Positions 31,333 through 38,585 of a stretch of 64,000 nt of DNA are shown here, piece by piece (positions within the stretch are counted from its first letter, which is position 1; each line of letters starts with the position of its first letter). The stretch comes from Minisyncoccota bacterium (GTDB lineage: Bacteria > Patescibacteriota > Minisyncoccia > Phycocordibacterales > JAQTLZ01): the NCBI GenBank assembly GCA_028714635.1, contig JAQTLZ010000002.1, forward strand, positions 121,841 through 185,840, in the 5' to 3' direction. The notes under the pieces are model-generated. The model saw only the letters and a list, made by a program, of their open reading frames with translations. It was not told where the DNA came from and searched no databases. Position numbers and translations under genes: made by a program.

Positions 31333-33036
31333 ATGAAAGAGAAATTAGAAATTTCGGTAAAGAAAGCTCTGAAAACACTTTCTATTGAAGCGGAAAGTGT
31401 TTCTTTCGAGCACCCAACAGAAATTTCTCACGGGGATTATTCGACGAATATTGCTCTTGCACTTTCGAAACATTCAAAAGAAAATCCTCGGGTTTTGGCG
31501 GAAAAAATTGTGGGGGAAATTAATAAAAAACTTCCCAAAGAGATTCACAAAGTTGAAGTTGCCGGGGCGGGATTTATTAATTTTTTTCTTTCGAAGGAAT
31601 TTTTTGTAGAGCAAACGGCCGAAATTTTGGCGGAAGGCCAAAATTTCGGCCGAAACAGCTCTCTTAAAAAAGAAAAAGTAGTTATTGAATACACAAACCC
31701 AAATCCTTTCAAGCAATTTCATATCGGTCATTTGATGAATAATGCTATAGGCGAATCACTCTCGAGAATCGTCGATGCAAGCGGAGCTAAACTCACTCGC
31801 GTGAATTATCAGGGAGATGTTGGGCTTCATGTGGCGAAAGCTCTTTATGGAATGATGCACTCTTCACGCCCCCTTCCCAAAGAAGAATCACTCGAAAAGC
31901 AGATCGCATATCTTGGTGAATCCTATGTCGCAGGCGCGACTGCATATGAAGAAAATGAGGAAGCAAAAAAAGAAATTCAGGAAATAAATAAAAAAGTTTT
32001 TGAAAAAAGTGATAAGGAAATAAATAAGCTCTATGAATGGGGGAGAAAAATCAGTCTTGAAGATTTTGAGCGTCTGTATCAGAAACTCGGGACAAAGTTT
32101 GAGCATTATTTTTTTGAAAGCGAAGCTGGGGCGATAGGAAAGAAAATTGTGCTTGAATATCTTGAAAAAGGCGTTTTTGAGAAAAGTGATGGAGCTATTA
32201 TCTTTCCTGGTGAGAAACATGCCCTGCATACACGCGTTTTCATTAATTCACAAGGCTTGCCGACATATGAGGCAAAAGAGCTCGGAGTTTCGCAGATGAA
32301 ATATGACATGTATCGTTACGATCTTTCCTTGGTGGTTGCGGGAAACGAGATCAATGATTATTTCAAGGTACTTACAAGAGTGATCGCAATTTTGTACCCA
32401 GAACTTGCAGACAAAATAAAACATATACCAAATGGAATGCTTCGCCTTGCCAGCGGGAAAATGTCCTCTCGAAAGGGAAATGTGATATTAGGGAATGATT
32501 TGATTTCCGATGTCGAGAAATTAGTGGAAGAAAAAATGAAAGACCGCGAACTTCCAGCTGGTCAGAAAAAAGAAATTGTAGAAAAAGTGGCGATCGGCGC
32601 TATCAAGTATTCGATTCTTCGCCAATCACCCGGCAAAGATATTATTTTTGATCTTGATAAATCACTTTCATTCGAAGGAGATTCGGGACCATATCTGCAA
32701 TACACAGCAGTCCGCGCAAATTCTGTGCTAGAAAAAGCGAAAGAGATGAAAATCAAATCGAGCGCTAAAGATGGAGAAGGAGAAGTGAATCTTGTTGAAA
32801 AAATGTTGTATCGTTTTCCCGAAATTGTCGAGCTTTCTCTTAAAGAATACGCTCCACAATACATTGCGACATATCTCATCGAACTTGCGGGAGCTTTCAA
32901 TTCATATTATGGAAATACAAAAATTATCAATACCGATCCGGGTGTGTCATACAGACTTTCCCTTACGGAAGCTGTAAAAATAGTTCTCGCCAACGGCCTT
33001 AACCTTCTAGGCATACAAGTGCCTGAAAAAATGTAA
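31333..33036 (+). CDS. argS: Arginyl-tRNA synthetase
   Basis: Class I HIGH (FHIGHLMN), KMSSRKG (KMSK variant), C-terminal DALR-type anticodon-binding region. Confidence 0.95.
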   Translation: MKEKLEISVKKALKTLSIEAESVSFEHPTEISHGDYSTNIALALSKHSKENPRVLAEKIVGEINKKLPKEIHKVEVAGAGFINFFLSKEFFVEQTAEILAEGQNFGRNSSLKKEKVVIEYTNPNPFKQFHIGHLMNNAIGESLSRIVDASGAKLTRVNYQGDVGLHVAKALYGMMHSSRPLPKEESLEKQIAYLGESYVAGATAYEENEEAKKEIQEINKKVFEKSDKEINKLYEWGRKISLEDFERLYQKLGTKFEHYFFESEAGAIGKKIVLEYLEKGVFEKSDGAIIFPGEKHALHTRVFINSQGLPTYEAKELGVSQMKYDMYRYDLSLVVAGNEINDYFKVLTRVIAILYPELADKIKHIPNGMLRLASGKMSSRKGNVILGNDLISDVEKLVEEKMKDRELPAGQKKEIVEKVAIGAIKYSILRQSPGKDIIFDLDKSLSFEGDSGPYLQYTAVRANSVLEKAKEMKIKSSAKDGEGEVNLVEKMLYRFPEIVELSLKEYAPQYIATYLIELAGAFNSYYGNTKIINTDPGVSYRLSLTEAVKIVLANGLNLLGIQVPEKM

Positions 33037-33045
33037 TATACATAT

Positions 33046-33378
33046 ATGACTGAAGCAATTCCAGGACAAAATAGTGGGAATCCAAGATCGGCGGATAGAC
33101 AGGAGAAAATTAACGAGATGATTTTGGCACGCAATGGGGTGTTAGGATTAGTGAAAACTCCAAAGCAGAGAGAGATTGTTCGAGAAGAGAATCAGCAATT
33201 TATTATTCAACTCAGGAAAAACAACCCAGGGCGCGACACCCTTGCAAAATATCAAGCATGGCAGATTTTCTCAAGTGGCACAGATATCCAGGATGAGAAA
33301 GCTCCGGAGCTTGATTTCCCGGGAGAAGATTCTCTTATTGAATTTTATAAAAGACTTGAAGAAAAGTTGAAATCATGA
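33046..33378 (+). CDS. Hypothetical protein
   Basis: 110-aa ORF; stop overlaps the maf start (ATGA coupling). Confidence 0.5.
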   Translation: MTEAIPGQNSGNPRSADRQEKINEMILARNGVLGLVKTPKQREIVREENQQFIIQLRKNNPGRDTLAKYQAWQIFSSGTDIQDEKAPELDFPGEDSLIEFYKRLEEKLKS

Positions 33379-33953
33379 GAAAAATAATTCTCGCATCAGG
33401 TTCTCCGCGCCGGAAAGAAATTTTAGGAAGGCTCGGCATTCCTTTTGAGGTCGTGCAAAGCGATTTCCAGGAGTTTATTGATCCCAAAATATCTCCGGGT
33501 GCGTTAGCAGAAAAGCTCGCGATCGGAAAAGCAAAAGCGGTCGCTTTCAAATACCCCGACGCAATTATTATCGGAGCGGATACTGTCGTAGCGCTTCATG
33601 GCGAAGCGATGGGGAAACCCAAGACGCCAGAGGAGGCTGTGGCTATGCTCACGCGCCTTTCGGGAGAAACCCATTCGGTATTTACAGGCTTTACCATCAT
33701 GAGTACAAAGACAGGGAGATCAATCACTGACGTTTGTGAATCAAAAGTTACTTTCAAACAGCTTGATCCCGCTAGTATTGAAAAATATGTTATAAGCGGA
33801 GAACCATTAGAGATGGCTGGAGGCTACGCGATACAGAGTGGAGCGAAAGATTTCGTGGAAAAATACGAAGGAGATTACAATAACATTGTCGGACTTCCTC
33901 TTACTCTCGTGCGGAACGCTCTCAAGATGTTTGATGTCAGTGTGTCCTCATAA
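33375..33953 (+). CDS. maf: Maf-like nucleoside triphosphate pyrophosphatase
   Basis: ILASGSPRRKEIL N-terminus, GADTVV, typical Maf length. Confidence 0.9.
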   Translation: MRKIILASGSPRRKEILGRLGIPFEVVQSDFQEFIDPKISPGALAEKLAIGKAKAVAFKYPDAIIIGADTVVALHGEAMGKPKTPEEAVAMLTRLSGETHSVFTGFTIMSTKTGRSITDVCESKVTFKQLDPASIEKYVISGEPLEMAGGYAIQSGAKDFVEKYEGDYNNIVGLPLTLVRNALKMFDVSVSS

Positions 33954-34000
33954 TATTTTTCTTGTTTGCGCAAGAGGTATAACTTGCTACTATTAATGCT

Positions 34001-34450
34001 ATGGAAGGAGATTACGAAAGAGAAGATGTGGAGAAATCGCTCCAGCCGGAGACGCCTCATTACCCTGCACGACCTCATTACTATGGCGATATTGTAAGGC
34101 AGGCACTTTTTGCTATCGGCATCATTATGATCATCGGCATGCCGATTTTTTCAGACAAAATCAGTTTCAGCGGTTTCTTCATCATTTTGGGAATTCTTGG
34201 CGTAAATCTTTTTGCCGGACTTACCAATCCCAAGCAGGCTGTGAGCATCTGGGGTGATTTCATCATCTCTTTTCTCGGTCTTGTTTTCTTTGAGCTCATC
34301 GCTTTTTTTTACTACGCGGCATATCACAGCGTTCTCGATCTCTATTTCTGGTTTAACCAGGTCATCAGCATTCTTTTCTTCGTTTCTCTATATTTTAGTG
34401 TCAAAACGCTCCGCGGAATGCTCACCGGCTCAATTGAGGAGGATAACTAG
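34001..34450 (+). CDS. Hypothetical membrane protein
   Basis: Four predicted hydrophobic helices, acidic N-terminus. Confidence 0.6.
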   Translation: MEGDYEREDVEKSLQPETPHYPARPHYYGDIVRQALFAIGIIMIIGMPIFSDKISFSGFFIILGILGVNLFAGLTNPKQAVSIWGDFIISFLGLVFFELIAFFYYAAYHSVLDLYFWFNQVISILFFVSLYFSVKTLRGMLTGSIEEDN

Positions 34451-34513: not shown

Positions 34514-37500
34514 ATGTCCGAGAAAGAAACAGACAAAAAAGTGAAAAGCCCTTTAGCTCTCCGTGAAGAGGAGATTCTTCGATTTTGGCAGGAAAAGAAA
34601 ATTTTTGAGAAGACAGAAGAGGCAGGCAGAGGGCAGAAGGAATTTGTTTTCTATGAGGGACCGCCGACCGCGAATGGTCGGCCGGGAATCCATCATCTCG
34701 AAGCTCGGGCATTTAAAGACATCATTCCTCGCTATAAAACGATGCGAGGATATCACGTGCGCAGAAAAGGCGGCTGGGATACGCATGGGCTTCCGGTTGA
34801 GCTTGAAGTTGAGAAAAAACTCGGTCTCAAATCAAAAAAAGAGATCGAACAGTACGGCATCGCTAGATTTAACGCGGAGTGCAAAGAAAGTGTTTGGAAA
34901 TACGTGGACGAATGGAAACAATTTACCGAGCGAATGGGGTATTGGATCGATCTGAAAAATCCCTACATCACTTACGAGCCTTCGTATATGGAATCGCTTT
35001 GGAATGTGATGAAGACGGTGGATGAGAAAAAACTTCTCTACAAAGATTATCGAATTGTACCGTGGTGTCCGCGTTGTGGAACTGCGCTGTCGAGTCATGA
35101 ACTTGCCCAAGGCTATGCAGAAGTAAAAGATATTTCGGTTTACGCGAAATTTGAGCTCGTCGATGAGCCGGGTACATTTGTGTTGGCGTGGACGACGACA
35201 CCTTGGACATTGCCGGGGAATGTTGCTCTCGCAGTTGGGCCGAAAATCAAATATGTGAAAGTAAAGATTGGGAATGAGTTCTTTATTTTGGCGAAAGAGA
35301 GGCTTTCAATTCTGAAAGACAAAGCGCACGAAATGGTGGAGGAGTTTGATGCCGGAAAGATTATCGGGAAATCCTACAAACCGCTTTTCAATGCTTTTTC
35401 TGACCCAAAAATCCTAAACAAAGAAAATGCGTGGAAAATTTATGGAGCGGATTTTGTCACAACAACTGACGGAACCGGAGTGGTGCATATCGCGCCCATG
35501 TATGGAGCAGACGATTTCGCACTTGCGACGAAAGTAAATTTGCCGAAATATCATACGGTTACTCCAGCAGGCGCTTTTAATGCAGATAAAAATCTTCCGG
35601 GAAACATTTCAGGCATTTCTATTTCTTCCGAAGAGGATCGTAAAAAAGGGAACATTGAGATCCTTAAATATCTTCAGGAAAAAAATCTCTATTTCGATAA
35701 AGAATCTCATGCGCATGAATATCCTTTTTGTTGGCGCTGTAAAACCCCGCTTATCTATTACGCCCGCGATTCCTGGTATATCAAAATGTCTTCTCTTCGC
35801 GACAAATTGGTAAAAGAAAATGAAAAGATAAATTGGGAGCCAGACTATATCAAAGAGGGACGTTTCGGAGAATGGCTTCGCGAAGTGAAAGATTGGGCGA
35901 TCTCCCGCGAGCGCTATTGGGGCACACCTTTGCCTGTGTGGGAGTGCCAAAAATGCAAAAAACGCGAAGTGATCGGCTCAATCGAGGCTCTCAAAGAAAA
36001 AACATCTCGAAAAAATAAATACTTTCTTGTCCGTCATGGGGAAGCGGAATCGAATTTGACTGGGAAGGTAAGCTGTCGGCCAGATGATCCTTACAAGCTT
36101 ACTGACAAGGGAAGGGAACAAGTCGAGACCACAGCTAAGGCCCTTAAAAAGAAAAAAATCGATGTCATTTTTGTTTCTGATTACATTCGGACAAAAGAGA
36201 CAGCAGAAATTATCCGAGAAGCTTTGAATATTTCTCCTGACAAAGTCATCATCGATGCCCGGCTTCGCGAAGATAATATCGGAGTGTACCAAGGCAAGAC
36301 CTGGAAAGAATATCAGGATGAATATCCGTATCTCGAGCGATTCGTAAAAACTCCAGAAGGCGGAGAGACGCTTGCGGAAGTAAGAAAAAGATCTGGAGAT
36401 TTTCTGTTTGATATTGATTCTCGCTTTGCCGGAAAAAATATTCTGATTGTAAGCCATGATACCCCGATGACTCTGATTCTGGCAGTGGCGCAAGGCTGGA
36501 CGAAGGAAAGAATTCTGCTCGGTCACGAGAGAAAAACTCCCGAACCTTTCTATTTTCTGCCAGCAGAGCTTCGAGAGATTTCTTTTTCTCCCTATCCTCA
36601 CAATGATGACTATGAACTCGATCTTCACCGCCCGTTTATCGATGAAATAAAATTTCCTTGCGACTGTGGCCTGCCCCCTGGCCGGGCAGGCGGCCAGGGC
36701 GGAGAGATGAAACGAGTGAATGAAGTAATGGATGTCTGGTTTGATTCAGGCGCAATGCCGTTCGCCGAGGACCACTATCCATTCGAGAATAAAAAGTGGG
36801 TGGAGAAAGAAGGATTTCCGGCAGACTATATTTCTGAAGCGATTGATCAGACTCGCGGATGGTTTTATACGCTTCATGCTGTGGGAGTGCTTATGGGTTT
36901 CGGCAAGGCGTATAAAAATGTTATTTGTCTCGGGCATATTTTGGATAAGGACGGACAAAAAATGTCCAAATCAAAAGGTAACACGGTAAATCCGTGGGAG
37001 ATGATGGACAAGTATGGCGCTGATCCCCTTCGCTTTTGGATGTATGGCGTCAATCAGCCGGGCGAATCAAAAAACTTCGACGAGAAAACAGTTGATGAGG
37101 GAGTGAAAAAAGTATTCAATTTGCTTTTGAACGTTCTTTCTTTTTACGAGATGAATTCTCCCCAAGAGTTCGAAGTAAGCAAGCCGGGCGCAAGCGAGAA
37201 TGTCTTGGATAGATGGATCGAAGCGAAATTTGCCGAGCTCCTCGCTACAGTAGAAACCGGACTCGATGCGTATCGAGTATTTGAGCCTGCCCGCGCAATT
37301 CGCGATTTTATGGCTGACCTTTCGCAGTGGTATTTGAGGCGTTCTCGTGATCGATTTAAAAGTGATGACGTCTTAGATAGGACGAATGCAGTCCAAACAA
37401 CGCGCACGGTCCTTCTTCAATTGGCGAAACTTATGGCTCCGTTCACTCCGTTTGTTGCGGAAGATGTCTATCGAAGACTCAGGGGCGAGAAGGAGAGTGT

Positions 37501-37984
37501 GCATATGGAAAGCTGGCCAAAGAGAGAAAAAATAGATTCCAAACTTCTGAAAGAAATGGAAGCGGTGAGAAATCTTGTGTCACTCGGGCTCGAAGCTCGC
37601 TCGAAAGCGCTTATCAAGGTCCGCCAGCCGCTCGCGAAGATAACAGTGAAGGCCGAGAAAATGTCTCCAGAACTCGTCGGACTTATGAAAGATGAATTGA
37701 ATGTGAAGGAAGTGATGTTTGATGCGAAACTTTCTTCGAATGTTCTTCTCGATATTGTCATAACTCCTGCGTTAAAAGAAGAAGGAGAATATCGAGAACT
37801 TCTGCGAGTTATCCAAGATTTTAGAAAAGAAAAGAAGCTTCAAGCGAGCGACAAAATTTCGCTTTTTCTGACTGCACCGAAAGAGATCCTGGCAATTGTA
37901 AAAAAATTTGAAACTGAAATAAAAAAGGTTTGCAATGTTACCGGCTTTGAAACGAGGGAAGGCGAGTTTGAGCTTAAGCTGTAA
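34514..37984 (+). CDS. ileS: Isoleucyl-tRNA synthetase (type 2) carrying an inserted histidine-phosphatase (PGAM-like) domain
   Basis: PPTANGRPGIHH (HIGH), GWDTHGLPVE, DVWFDSG, KMSKSKGN. Between CQKC and DLHRPFIDEIKFPCDCG lies a ~200-aa module with LVRHGEAESN (RHG) and IVSHDTPM (second catalytic His). Confidence 0.95.
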   Translation: MSEKETDKKVKSPLALREEEILRFWQEKKIFEKTEEAGRGQKEFVFYEGPPTANGRPGIHHLEARAFKDIIPRYKTMRGYHVRRKGGWDTHGLPVELEVEKKLGLKSKKEIEQYGIARFNAECKESVWKYVDEWKQFTERMGYWIDLKNPYITYEPSYMESLWNVMKTVDEKKLLYKDYRIVPWCPRCGTALSSHELAQGYAEVKDISVYAKFELVDEPGTFVLAWTTTPWTLPGNVALAVGPKIKYVKVKIGNEFFILAKERLSILKDKAHEMVEEFDAGKIIGKSYKPLFNAFSDPKILNKENAWKIYGADFVTTTDGTGVVHIAPMYGADDFALATKVNLPKYHTVTPAGAFNADKNLPGNISGISISSEEDRKKGNIEILKYLQEKNLYFDKESHAHEYPFCWRCKTPLIYYARDSWYIKMSSLRDKLVKENEKINWEPDYIKEGRFGEWLREVKDWAISRERYWGTPLPVWECQKCKKREVIGSIEALKEKTSRKNKYFLVRHGEAESNLTGKVSCRPDDPYKLTDKGREQVETTAKALKKKKIDVIFVSDYIRTKETAEIIREALNISPDKVIIDARLREDNIGVYQGKTWKEYQDEYPYLERFVKTPEGGETLAEVRKRSGDFLFDIDSRFAGKNILIVSHDTPMTLILAVAQGWTKERILLGHERKTPEPFYFLPAELREISFSPYPHNDDYELDLHRPFIDEIKFPCDCGLPPGRAGGQGGEMKRVNEVMDVWFDSGAMPFAEDHYPFENKKWVEKEGFPADYISEAIDQTRGWFYTLHAVGVLMGFGKAYKNVICLGHILDKDGQKMSKSKGNTVNPWEMMDKYGADPLRFWMYGVNQPGESKNFDEKTVDEGVKKVFNLLLNVLSFYEMNSPQEFEVSKPGASENVLDRWIEAKFAELLATVETGLDAYRVFEPARAIRDFMADLSQWYLRRSRDRFKSDDVLDRTNAVQTTRTVLLQLAKLMAPFTPFVAEDVYRRLRGEKESVHMESWPKREKIDSKLLKEMEAVRNLVSLGLEARSKALIKVRQPLAKITVKAEKMSPELVGLMKDELNVKEVMFDAKLSSNVLLDIVITPALKEEGEYRELLRVIQDFRKEKKLQASDKISLFLTAPKEILAIVKKFETEIKKVCNVTGFETREGEFELKL

Positions 37985-37991
37985 GTCTCTC

Positions 37992-38585
37992 ATGCATCAT
38001 ATCTACCAAACAGAAGGGTTTGTTATCGGCGGGACGAATGCCGGCGAGGCAAATCGATATCTCAAAATTTTCACACTTGATTTCGGCATGATCTCTGGTT
38101 CTGCTCAAGGAATCAGACATTTAAAATCAAAACTTCGCTACAGCCTCCAGGATTTTTCCTACAGTTCAGTTTCTTTGGTGAAAGGGAAAGATGTTTGGAG
38201 AGTGGTGAACGCAGAAAAAAAGGAAAATCTCTGGGAACTTTTTCGCAAAGAAAAAAGGAAACTTGAAATTTTCGCCCGCTCTCTTTCGCTTCTCAAAAGA
38301 TTTTTACACGGAGAAGAGAAAAATGAGGCATTGTTTCGTCTTTTTTCTTCCAGCTGTTTCTACCTTGCGAAATCAGAGACTCTTTCTCCAGAGGACCTGC
38401 GTAATTTCGAGTATGTTTTAGTGCTTCGAATTTTGCATAATCTCGGCTATCTCAAAAAACTTCCCATACTTTCGCCTTTTTCGGAGACGGACGCGTGGAA
38501 TCAAGACATTCTTCGAGAAATGGAAGGACACAAAGCGCTTGCACTCGCCGAGATAAATCGCTCATTTACAGAAAGTCACCTCTAG
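37992..38585 (+). CDS. recO: DNA repair protein RecO (short form)
   Basis: N-terminal OB-fold pattern matches RecO (EGFVIGGTNAGEANRYLKIFTLDFGMISGSAQGIRHLKSKLRYSLQDFS), later LRILHNLGY. Confidence 0.65.
   Translation: MHHIYQTEGFVIGGTNAGEANRYLKIFTLDFGMISGSAQGIRHLKSKLRYSLQDFSYSSVSLVKGKDVWRVVNAEKKENLWELFRKEKRKLEIFARSLSLLKRFLHGEEKNEALFRLFSSSCFYLAKSETLSPEDLRNFEYVLVLRILHNLGYLKKLPILSPFSETDAWNQDILREMEGHKALALAEINRSFTESHL

Follow-up and report, generated by a model that had tools for sequence, protein, structure and literature searches.

Aminoacyl-tRNA synthetases are among the most conserved enzymes, and their accessory domains have repeatedly revealed editing, signalling and resistance. What does a phosphatase do inside one of them? 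The question is raised by ileS, the isoleucyl-tRNA synthetase (IleRS) gene in a 64,000-nucleotide stretch of DNA from a Minisyncoccota bacterium (contig JAQTLZ010000002.1, positions 121,841 to 185,840; assembly GCA_028714635.1), the whole of which is called the window below. The original prediction, made from the letters of this stretch, held that a PGAM-like histidine-phosphatase domain is inserted in frame into the zinc knuckle of the enzyme and is not a neighbouring gene. The analysis bore this out, both by profile score and by a nearly invariant catalytic set. The same architecture, an apparently active second hydrolytic enzyme inside an essential synthetase fold, was found over a large part of the Candidate Phyla Radiation (CPR).

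The synthetase and the domain within it

The ileS open reading frame (ORF) was confirmed to be a single reading frame without interruption, encoding 1156 amino acids. It scored 879.6 bits with TIGR00392 (ileS, NCBIfam) against a cut-off of 621.4, and the Pfam matches along it were tRNA-synt_1 in two stretches, His_Phos_1, Anticodon_1 and DUF5915. Connective peptide 3 (CP3) follows CP2 in this protein and runs up to the second half of the Rossmann fold; its nomenclature and its zinc motif in Thermus thermophilus IleRS have been described, and its topology varies between IleRS lineages (PMC7191050). Conservation was counted over the 120 best full-length relatives (1115-1215 amino acids, 54-60% identity), all of which carry the same PF00300 insertion, a recurrence for which the original prediction had proposed to search. 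The features of the gene are:

34514..37984, plus strand: ileS ORF, 1156 amino acids, type 2 isoleucyl-tRNA synthetase with embedded histidine-phosphatase domain (TIGR00392, Pfam)
34685..34696, plus strand: class I signature G58-I59-H60-H61, the non-canonical GxHH form of HIGH (sequence)
35945..35956, plus strand: CP3 zinc knuckle, first half, C478-x2-C481 (cysteines kept in 104-105 of 120 relatives)
36011..36601, plus strand: inserted His_Phos_1 (branch 1) domain, residues ~500-696 (Pfam; boundaries against insert-free IleRS)
36032..36040, plus strand: catalytic R507-H508-G509, the phospho-acceptor histidine motif (family conservation)
36455..36457, plus strand: second catalytic histidine, H648 (120 of 120 relatives)
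36659..36667, plus strand: CP3 zinc knuckle, second half, C716-x-C718 (kept in 104 of 120 relatives)
36668..36697, plus strand: G/P/R-rich private loop GLPPGRAGGQ, residues 719-728 (a gap in ~116 of 120 relatives)
36959..36973, plus strand: KMSKS loop of the synthetic site, K816-S820 (sequence, family conservation)

Along the frame, PVWEC begins at residue 474 (nucleotide 35933), LVRHG at 505 (36026), SHDTP at 647 (36452), DLHRP at 703 (36620), FPCDCG at 714, DVWFDSG at 740 and KMSKS at 816; the two phosphatase motifs, LVRHG and SHDTP, are at the places claimed for them. The synthetase motifs had been listed as HIGH, DVWFDSG and KMSKS. The latter two were present, whereas the class I signature reads GIHH. 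GIHH was found in 118 of the 120 relatives, and the G/AxHH variant has been documented as functional in type 2 IleRS (IleRS2), where it gives mupirocin hyper-resistance (PMC10485003). The top PDB sequence match of the window protein was an engineered GVHH mutant (8c8w) and not the wild type. No strict co-variation of the GxHH signature with the state of the phosphatase was seen in a pattern search that missed many sequences. In the KMSKS loop, K816, M817 and K819 were invariant across the family, and S818 and S820 were conserved in at least 90%.

Comparison with solved structures placed the host protein among the bacterial type 2 enzymes. The best matches, at 803-791 bits, were Priestia megaterium IleRS2 (8c8u, 8c8v, 8c8w) and T. 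thermophilus IleRS (1ile), and isolated IleRS editing-domain structures (1wk8, 1ue0) matched residues 200-404. The whole protein was modelled with AlphaFold2 from the family alignment (mean predicted local distance difference test, pLDDT, 89.9; predicted template modelling score, pTM, 0.83), and the model as a whole matched IleRS2 structures in Foldseek (E ~1e-85, TM 0.72-0.80), with full-length alignment to 8c8v. Shared with these enzymes are the domain order, a CP3 zinc knuckle of the T. thermophilus type, the DUF5915 C-terminal domains and the GxHH variant; unlike them, the window protein has ~197 extra residues, the histidine-phosphatase domain in CP3. It is not a member of the MupA or MupB families, whose models gave 798 and 789 bits versus an NCBIfam exception cut-off of 1900. 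By all defining features tested, the window protein is a type 2 IleRS, and these results showed that it is the housekeeping enzyme of this type in a Patescibacteria (Paceibacteria-type) genome. As the sole ileS of a conserved housekeeping block, with its motifs conserved, it presumably retains isoleucylation activity.

The insert could be delimited closely. Residues 12-497 and 685-1119 of the window protein align to 8-478 and 470-904 of the P. megaterium IleRS2 chain, and this split leaves ~190-200 residues without a counterpart, close to the ~200 originally estimated. Alignment with insert-free CPR and non-CPR IleRS set the boundaries at residues ~500-696 (nucleotides ~36011-36601); in all aligned insert-free relatives 'GSIxELKxK' passes in a few residues to 'DLHRPxID'. 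The domain lies between C478-x2-C481 and C716-x-C718, ~120 residues ahead of KMSKS, and alignment with type 2 IleRS located the insertion between the CxxC and CxC knuckle halves, as anticipated. The accompanying claim that these halves are only ~20 residues apart in other IleS did not hold: the CxxC-CxC spacing is ~35-40 residues in insert-free relatives, that of locus L018 among them.

Both checks that had been proposed for the fold gave clear results. The match to His_Phos_1 (PF00300, residues 504-666) scored 127.3 bits against a gathering threshold of 21.7 (E = 7.9e-37), and in the AlphaFold2 model the insert was a confidently folded alpha/beta domain, with block pLDDT values of 91-98 except for one block at 80 (residues 671-680), confident junctions, and strands at 502-507, 551-554, 578-580, 642-647 and 686-689 alternating with helices. 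R507 and H508 were present in all 120 relatives and G509 in 118, and the motif recurs in free-standing copies and in copies embedded in valyl-tRNA synthetase (ValRS). For the rest of the catalytic set the counts were 119 (N514), 120 (R559), 117 (E586), 120 (E618) and 118 (R626), and the catalytic residues align to those of PspA and PhoE. By score, catalytic core and fold, the insert is a branch-1 histidine phosphatase. Near-invariance of the catalytic residues across the 120 relatives and nearly all extra copies is a pattern characteristic of active enzymes and not of pseudo-enzymes, and we infer from it that the insert is a catalytically active phosphatase.

The closest solved relatives of the insert were PspA (4ij5), a metal-independent phosphoserine phosphatase, and PhoE (1h2e/1ebb), a broad-specificity phosphatase, matched over ~155 residues at E = 1e-14 to 1e-15. 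PspA, PhoE, CobC and GpmB-like enzymes share the fold family and the catalytic Arg-His...Arg...Glu...His set with the insert but are free-standing small-molecule phosphatases, whereas the insert is embedded in a synthetase. The insert is not a member of the PspA, CobC, SixA or dPGM families, the scores being 71 bits versus a cut-off of 350 for PspA, 83 versus 163 for CobC, 37.5 versus 74.5 for SixA and 79 versus 225 for dPGM_arch (NF038349, TIGR01258 and others tested). The dPGM-specific motif is H-G-N after the second histidine; the insert reads S-H-D-T-P (H-x-x-P in the family), not H-G-N. In the bifunctional RNase H/acid phosphatase (NF005567, Rv2228c type) a CobC-like phosphatase is joined to a nucleic-acid enzyme; its phosphatase half matches the insert at 85 bits versus a cut-off of 326, and it is an end-to-end fusion with another partner.

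Within the 120-member family the insert is the least conserved region, with a mean pairwise identity of 43% versus 75% in the catalytic core. Insert and host were vertically co-inherited, as their correlated divergences indicate (r = 0.52). The GC fraction of the insert (~0.40-0.45) is slightly lower than that of its flanks (0.46-0.50), with no sharp break, and no second His_Phos gene was found in the 64-kb window. Directly after the insert stands 'PHN' (residues 695-697, nucleotides 36596-36604), whose residues are kept in 116, 110 and 108 of the 120 insert-bearing IleRS and are missing in insert-free relatives. This motif is no intein junction and may serve to cap the return linker structurally. 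An intein was rejected on three grounds: the fold is His_Phos and not HINT, H696-N697 is followed by D/E, and the N-terminal junction has no nucleophile.

Embedded, adjacent and ValRS-borne copies

The identical protein in NCBI (P0121, from a metagenome-assembled genome) is named 'class I tRNA ligase family protein [Candidatus Pacebacteria bacterium]', and such generic annotation, like 'histidine phosphatase family protein, partial', conceals the architecture. A query spanning the junction returned dozens of fragments with PF00133 and PF00300, nearly all labelled Patescibacteria/CPR (Paceibacterota, Uhrbacteria, Nealsonbacteria, Niyogibacteria, Sungbacteria, Magasanikbacteria, Colwellbacteria and Vogelbacteria). 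When species-representative genomes were scanned, 11 loci gave a full-length junction match, most with Patescibacteria-type labels, which include Saccharibacteria, Peregrinibacteria, Yanofskybacteria and Spechtbacterales. The embedded architecture recurs in hundreds of independent assemblies. At ~65 non-CPR type 2 IleRS loci (Clostridia, Ignavibacteria, Chloroflexota, Bacteroidota and others) neither the insert nor the free-standing form was found. The junction match there extends only ~370-470 bp, so these loci hold no comparable insert; that comparable inserts might be common at this site had been named at the outset as the observation that would tell against the prediction. Apparent splitting of ileS at the insertion point (P0005, P0049, P0072) was rejected, the genes being collinear ORF pieces in indel-ridden long-read assemblies in which other genes are fragmented likewise. 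A recurrent class of IleS of 720-766 amino acids consists of gene calls from a conserved internal Met425, 'MSxLRDKL'.

The architecture had been thought undescribed, which is consistent with the literature; the sequences themselves are public under the generic names. Full-text literature searches yielded no description of a phosphatase inside an aminoacyl-tRNA synthetase. Recent work on IleRS evolution (PMC10485003 and a preprint) mentions neither a phosphatase nor Patescibacteria or the CPR, and the preprint does not mention CP3. Accessory catalytic domains in synthetases are a known theme, for which NCBIfam NF040702, 'ileS_w_GNAT', is a curated precedent. The window protein is not a member of NF040702 (313 bits versus a cut-off of 1999, no acetyltransferase Pfam match).

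An exhaustive search with the insert alone revealed a clade of free-standing proteins of ~190 amino acids that are 41-48% identical to it and carry the same active-site signature. A metagenome scan for this form, seeded with an alignment of 6 sequences, gave 80 loci, 45 with the free-standing gene and 31 with the embedded form. The next gene on the same strand was an insert-free ileS (~950 amino acids) in 35 of the 45 free-standing loci, and a representative of these scored 902 bits with TIGR00392. The gap between phosphatase and ileS is ~4 nucleotides or the genes overlap; it was at most 13 nucleotides in 30 of the 35 loci, and stop and start codons overlapped in 8. At the free-standing loci argS lies upstream, recO downstream and smpB further upstream. 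The free copy was absent from all 31 embedded loci, in 13 of which argS is directly upstream of ileS. These results showed that the embedded and adjacent states are mutually exclusive and replace each other in the same argS-ileS-recO block. Only five homologues, the most distant ones at 29-35% identity, lay in unrelated contexts. CPR loci keep the order argS-ileS-recO, whose outer members in the window are:

31333..33036, plus strand: argS, upstream member of the block (Pfam tRNA-synt_1d, DALR_1, Arg_tRNA_synt_N; synteny)
37935..38585, plus strand: recO, downstream member of the block (Pfam RecO_N; TIGR00613 for the homologous neighbour)

As listed, the recO ORF begins 50 nucleotides inside the end of ileS (overlap 37935-37984).

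The adjacency of the free phosphatase to ileS is maintained over divergent IleRS lineages, and the free, IleRS-embedded and ValRS-embedded copies have one common active-site signature. The alternation of embedded and adjacent states amounts to a Rosetta-stone linkage, yet one in which the partner is always internal and never fused end to end. Of the insert-free IleRS that adjoin a free phosphatase, many (L088, L096, L134 and the large ADJ clade) are of a divergent subtype that reads 'NPWLDAGI' for 'DVWFDSG' and 'ISKKRYWG' for 'ISRERYWG'. Three proteins of ~404-413 amino acids (P0292, P0319, P0362) are free-standing tandem pairs of His_Phos domains of the same subfamily, with halves 41-43% identical.

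All phosphatase copies were mapped onto the coordinates of the window protein. Nearly all embedded proteins carry the domain at the canonical site, 497|703. Copies were also located at 716|731, just past the second knuckle half (P0257, P0348, P0371 and a complete 1472-residue open frame in L015), at 761|770 (P0257), and at 878|895, ahead of the anticodon-binding domain (the complete 1419-residue P0282). Every complete copy retains the core R/H/R/E/H, with variation only at N514, G509, E618 and R626. Although stop and start codons overlap in the free form, not one of the more than 250 fused proteins is an end-to-end fusion; apparent N-terminal fusions in L148, L151 and L012 (domain matches near residue 88) had scores of ~0 and were discarded as spurious. 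The private loop GLPPGRAGGQ of the window protein falls exactly at 716|731, where other lineages hold a second phosphatase copy, and by this coincidence it looks like a second indel hot spot of CP3.

The domain is also present in ValRS. P0245, which scored 411 and 381 bits with valS models versus 199 with ileS, carries four His_Phos copies, and 30 of the 120 best matches to the P0245 query segment, mostly ValRS, carry PF00300. Most ValRS copies lie within the homologous CP3 knuckle, 'VWYCxxC...[domain]...CxxC...DTLDTWFSS'; others follow 'DTWFSS...GWP', homologous to IleRS 761|770, or 'SPQWF'. Some 30 CPR ValRS fragments (P0374-P0483), together with P0245, have one to four His_Phos domains each. 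On a neighbour-joining tree the site-716 copies formed their own group and the ValRS copies a separate clade. This separation means at least three independent acquisitions, all of them internal, in two paralogous class Ia enzymes. In CP3, one metagenomic CPR IleRS fragment of 1066 amino acids (P0355) carries a His_Phos domain and, following it, a GNAT acetyltransferase; its editing region contains an in-frame domain (residues ~326-472) that resembles a REP-associated tyrosine transposase. The fragment stops at the GNAT domain, probably through truncation.

Free and embedded states were interleaved on neighbour-joining trees of both the IleRS core and the phosphatase, and IleRS and phosphatase distances correlated even among mixed-state pairs (Spearman 0.46). 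This comparison of sequences suggests several transitions between the two states. The free phosphatases are mostly each other's nearest neighbours, the nearest neighbour being of the same state in 57 of 66 sequences.

What the phosphatase may do at a class Ia synthetase

Three observations together make it fairly likely that the phosphatase works functionally with class Ia synthetases, beyond mere co-expression: an adjacency, translationally coupled, that holds across divergent IleRS; exclusively internal placement, although end-to-end fusion would have been trivially easy; and parallel ValRS insertions. The original suggestion that the domain could couple tRNA charging to a phosphotransfer or regulatory step gains indirect support from the linkage of the free-standing homologue to ileS at operon level and from the ValRS insertions. 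The internal placement presumably reflects a need for a position beside the entrance of the synthetic site. The CP1 editing domain of IleRS, ValRS and LeuRS is a hydrolytic insertion in the Rossmann fold that serves the tRNA 3' end. It belongs to the described domain layout of class Ia synthetases (PMC7191050, PMC11685878) and offers a conceptual precedent for a second inserted hydrolytic module such as a phosphatase. CP1 is universal in the three enzymes, has an unrelated fold and hydrolyses aminoacyl esters, whereas the phosphatase is CPR-specific and lies in CP3. By a logic like that of CP1, the phosphatase would be a second hydrolytic 'service' domain of the Rossmann fold and would remove a phosphate that blocks isoleucylation. 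As the best explanation of the whole, an active phosphatase module of class Ia synthetases that removes such a block has, in our judgement, about an even chance of being correct.

Our first choice of substrate, a tentative one drawn from analogy, is a 3'-terminal phosphate or pyrophosphate on A76 of tRNA-Ile; blocked tRNA, once bound, would be repaired and then charged. ToxSAS enzymes pyrophosphorylate the tRNA CCA end, and small alarmone hydrolases restore charging (10.1101/2021.04.30.441581; PMC11559606). The hydrolases ATfaRel and MESH1 are functional analogues in that they remove a 3'-terminal phosphate group that blocks aminoacylation; they are free-standing, have the HD-domain RSH fold and an experimentally shown activity, whereas the activity of the insert is hypothetical. 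A phospho-serine of the enzyme's own KMSKS loop, likewise suggested by analogy, comes second in order and seems unlikely; a phosphorylated nucleotide or adenylate-like ligand at the active site, listed third, seems doubtful. Taken more broadly, the CPR might possess a built-in or adjacent phosphate-removing 'repair' site on class Ia synthetases that strips phosphate or pyrophosphate from the tRNA 3' end or the KMSKS loop, a proposal that we regard as speculative and improbable as it stands.

As the chief alternative, the domain might be a passenger, an ordinary metabolic small-molecule phosphatase of the PhoE, PspA or CobC kind housed in a permissive surface loop of IleRS with no link to aminoacylation, for which co-expression and gene economy in a reduced genome would be the sole benefit. 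The nearest solved and curated relatives are indeed small-molecule enzymes, the same subfamily occurs stand-alone with the same active-site signature, and fusion of neighbouring genes is common; CP3 is a naturally variable subdomain (PMC7191050) that accepts other inserts, such as the GNAT domain and the private G/P/R loop. Overlapping stop and start codons should, however, have produced end-to-end fusions, which are absent from the more than 250 fused proteins. The domain occupies at least four internal IleRS sites, its copies in the homologous ValRS knuckle form a separate clade, and the adjacency to ileS is held across divergent lineages; we therefore consider a role unconnected with aminoacylation possible but rather unlikely. 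A catalytically dead scaffold, in which the fold is retained as a structural or tRNA-binding extension of CP3 without phosphatase chemistry, would fit the differing CP3 topologies of IleRS lineages (PMC7191050) and the rapid evolution of the insert, the fastest-evolving region of the protein. Such a scaffold is made very improbable by the six catalytic residues, all of which show little or no variation across the 120 relatives (54-60% identity) and in almost all of the extra copies.

Another alternative is a protein phosphatase acting in cis, which would reverse inhibitory phosphorylation of the KMSKS serine, or of another IleRS or ValRS site, by Hip-like or Hanks-type kinases. The histidine-phosphatase superfamily includes the protein phosphatases SixA, PGAM5 and Sts-1. 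S818 and S820 are conserved, and in sequence every insertion site but the ValRS one after SPQWF is no more than ~120 residues away from KMSKS. By phosphorylating the KLSKR/KMSKS-loop serine, HipA and HipT inactivate the class I synthetases GltX and TrpS, and a cell must undo this in order to resuscitate (PMC6581861). Up to four copies in one ValRS (P0245) are nevertheless hard to reconcile with a reaction at a single loop, the free-standing form would need specific recognition of IleRS in trans, and no kinase partner was identified, although no search for Hip-like kinases or toxSAS was made. This alternative is in our view unlikely. The probability is negligible that the insert is an artefact, be it a chimeric assembly or two genes read through as one, or a selfish element of the intein-like or mobile sort, either removed or without function. 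All data come from metagenome assemblies, P0355 has its in-frame transposase-like domain, and PHN is conserved at the C-terminal junction. The same architecture, however, occurs in hundreds of independent assemblies and sources, with a continuous frame and no sharp break in composition, and the seemingly 'split' genes reflect indel-ridden long-read assemblies or Met425 starts. Assembly chimera and read-through were ruled out by the ubiquity of the architecture and the continuity of the frame.

Several points weigh against a phosphatase module that removes a block to isoleucylation. The conserved block also holds functionally unrelated genes (recO, smpB), and adjacency alone is therefore weak evidence. 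Some CPR genomes have neither form at the locus (L018, L032, L059), which means that the activity is not universally needed beside ileS. Among characterised enzymes the insert is nearest to PspA, PhoE, CobC and GpmB, which are phosphatases of small molecules, and it scores below every NCBIfam equivalog cut-off (dPGM, PspA, CobC, GpmB, SixA). The trees are neighbour-joining trees without support values. To our knowledge, no branch-1 histidine phosphatase acts on an RNA 3' end.

The comparative signature is clean, with the domain either embedded or encoded by a translationally coupled upstream gene and with ValRS carrying it at the equivalent loop, and it poses a testable question: which phosphorylated species must be cleared at a class Ia synthetase? 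Action on the tRNA 3' end or the KMSKS loop would make the phosphatase a new level of quality control in translation or of defence against toxins; were the substrate a metabolite, the result would be a striking example of a domain inserted repeatedly into permissive loops of proteins from reduced genomes. A true repair site would mean that IleRS and ValRS have built-in immunity to, or recovery from, translation shutdown by phosphorylation (toxSAS-type and Hip-type toxins). Synthetase accessory domains would also gain a new functional class, and branch-1 histidine phosphatases their first role directed at RNA ends or at a synthetase.

Surroundings of ileS in the window

Searches for a T-box or other leader RNA, promoters and terminators around ileS gave nothing above chance. 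The 64 kb contain a single tRNA gene, tRNA-His (GTG) at 1222-1293, and no other Rfam family reached its gathering score. The terminator scan returned, on the minus strand, a perfect 16-bp inverted repeat with a 5-nucleotide loop at 31616-31652, within the argS coding region. The interval between argS and ileS (33046-34450), which is the slot of the free phosphatase in relatives, holds a Maf-like nucleotide pyrophosphatase gene (33375-33953) flanked by two ORFs without a Pfam match, one of 110 residues before it and one of 149 residues after it, the latter of which appears to encode a membrane-spanning protein.

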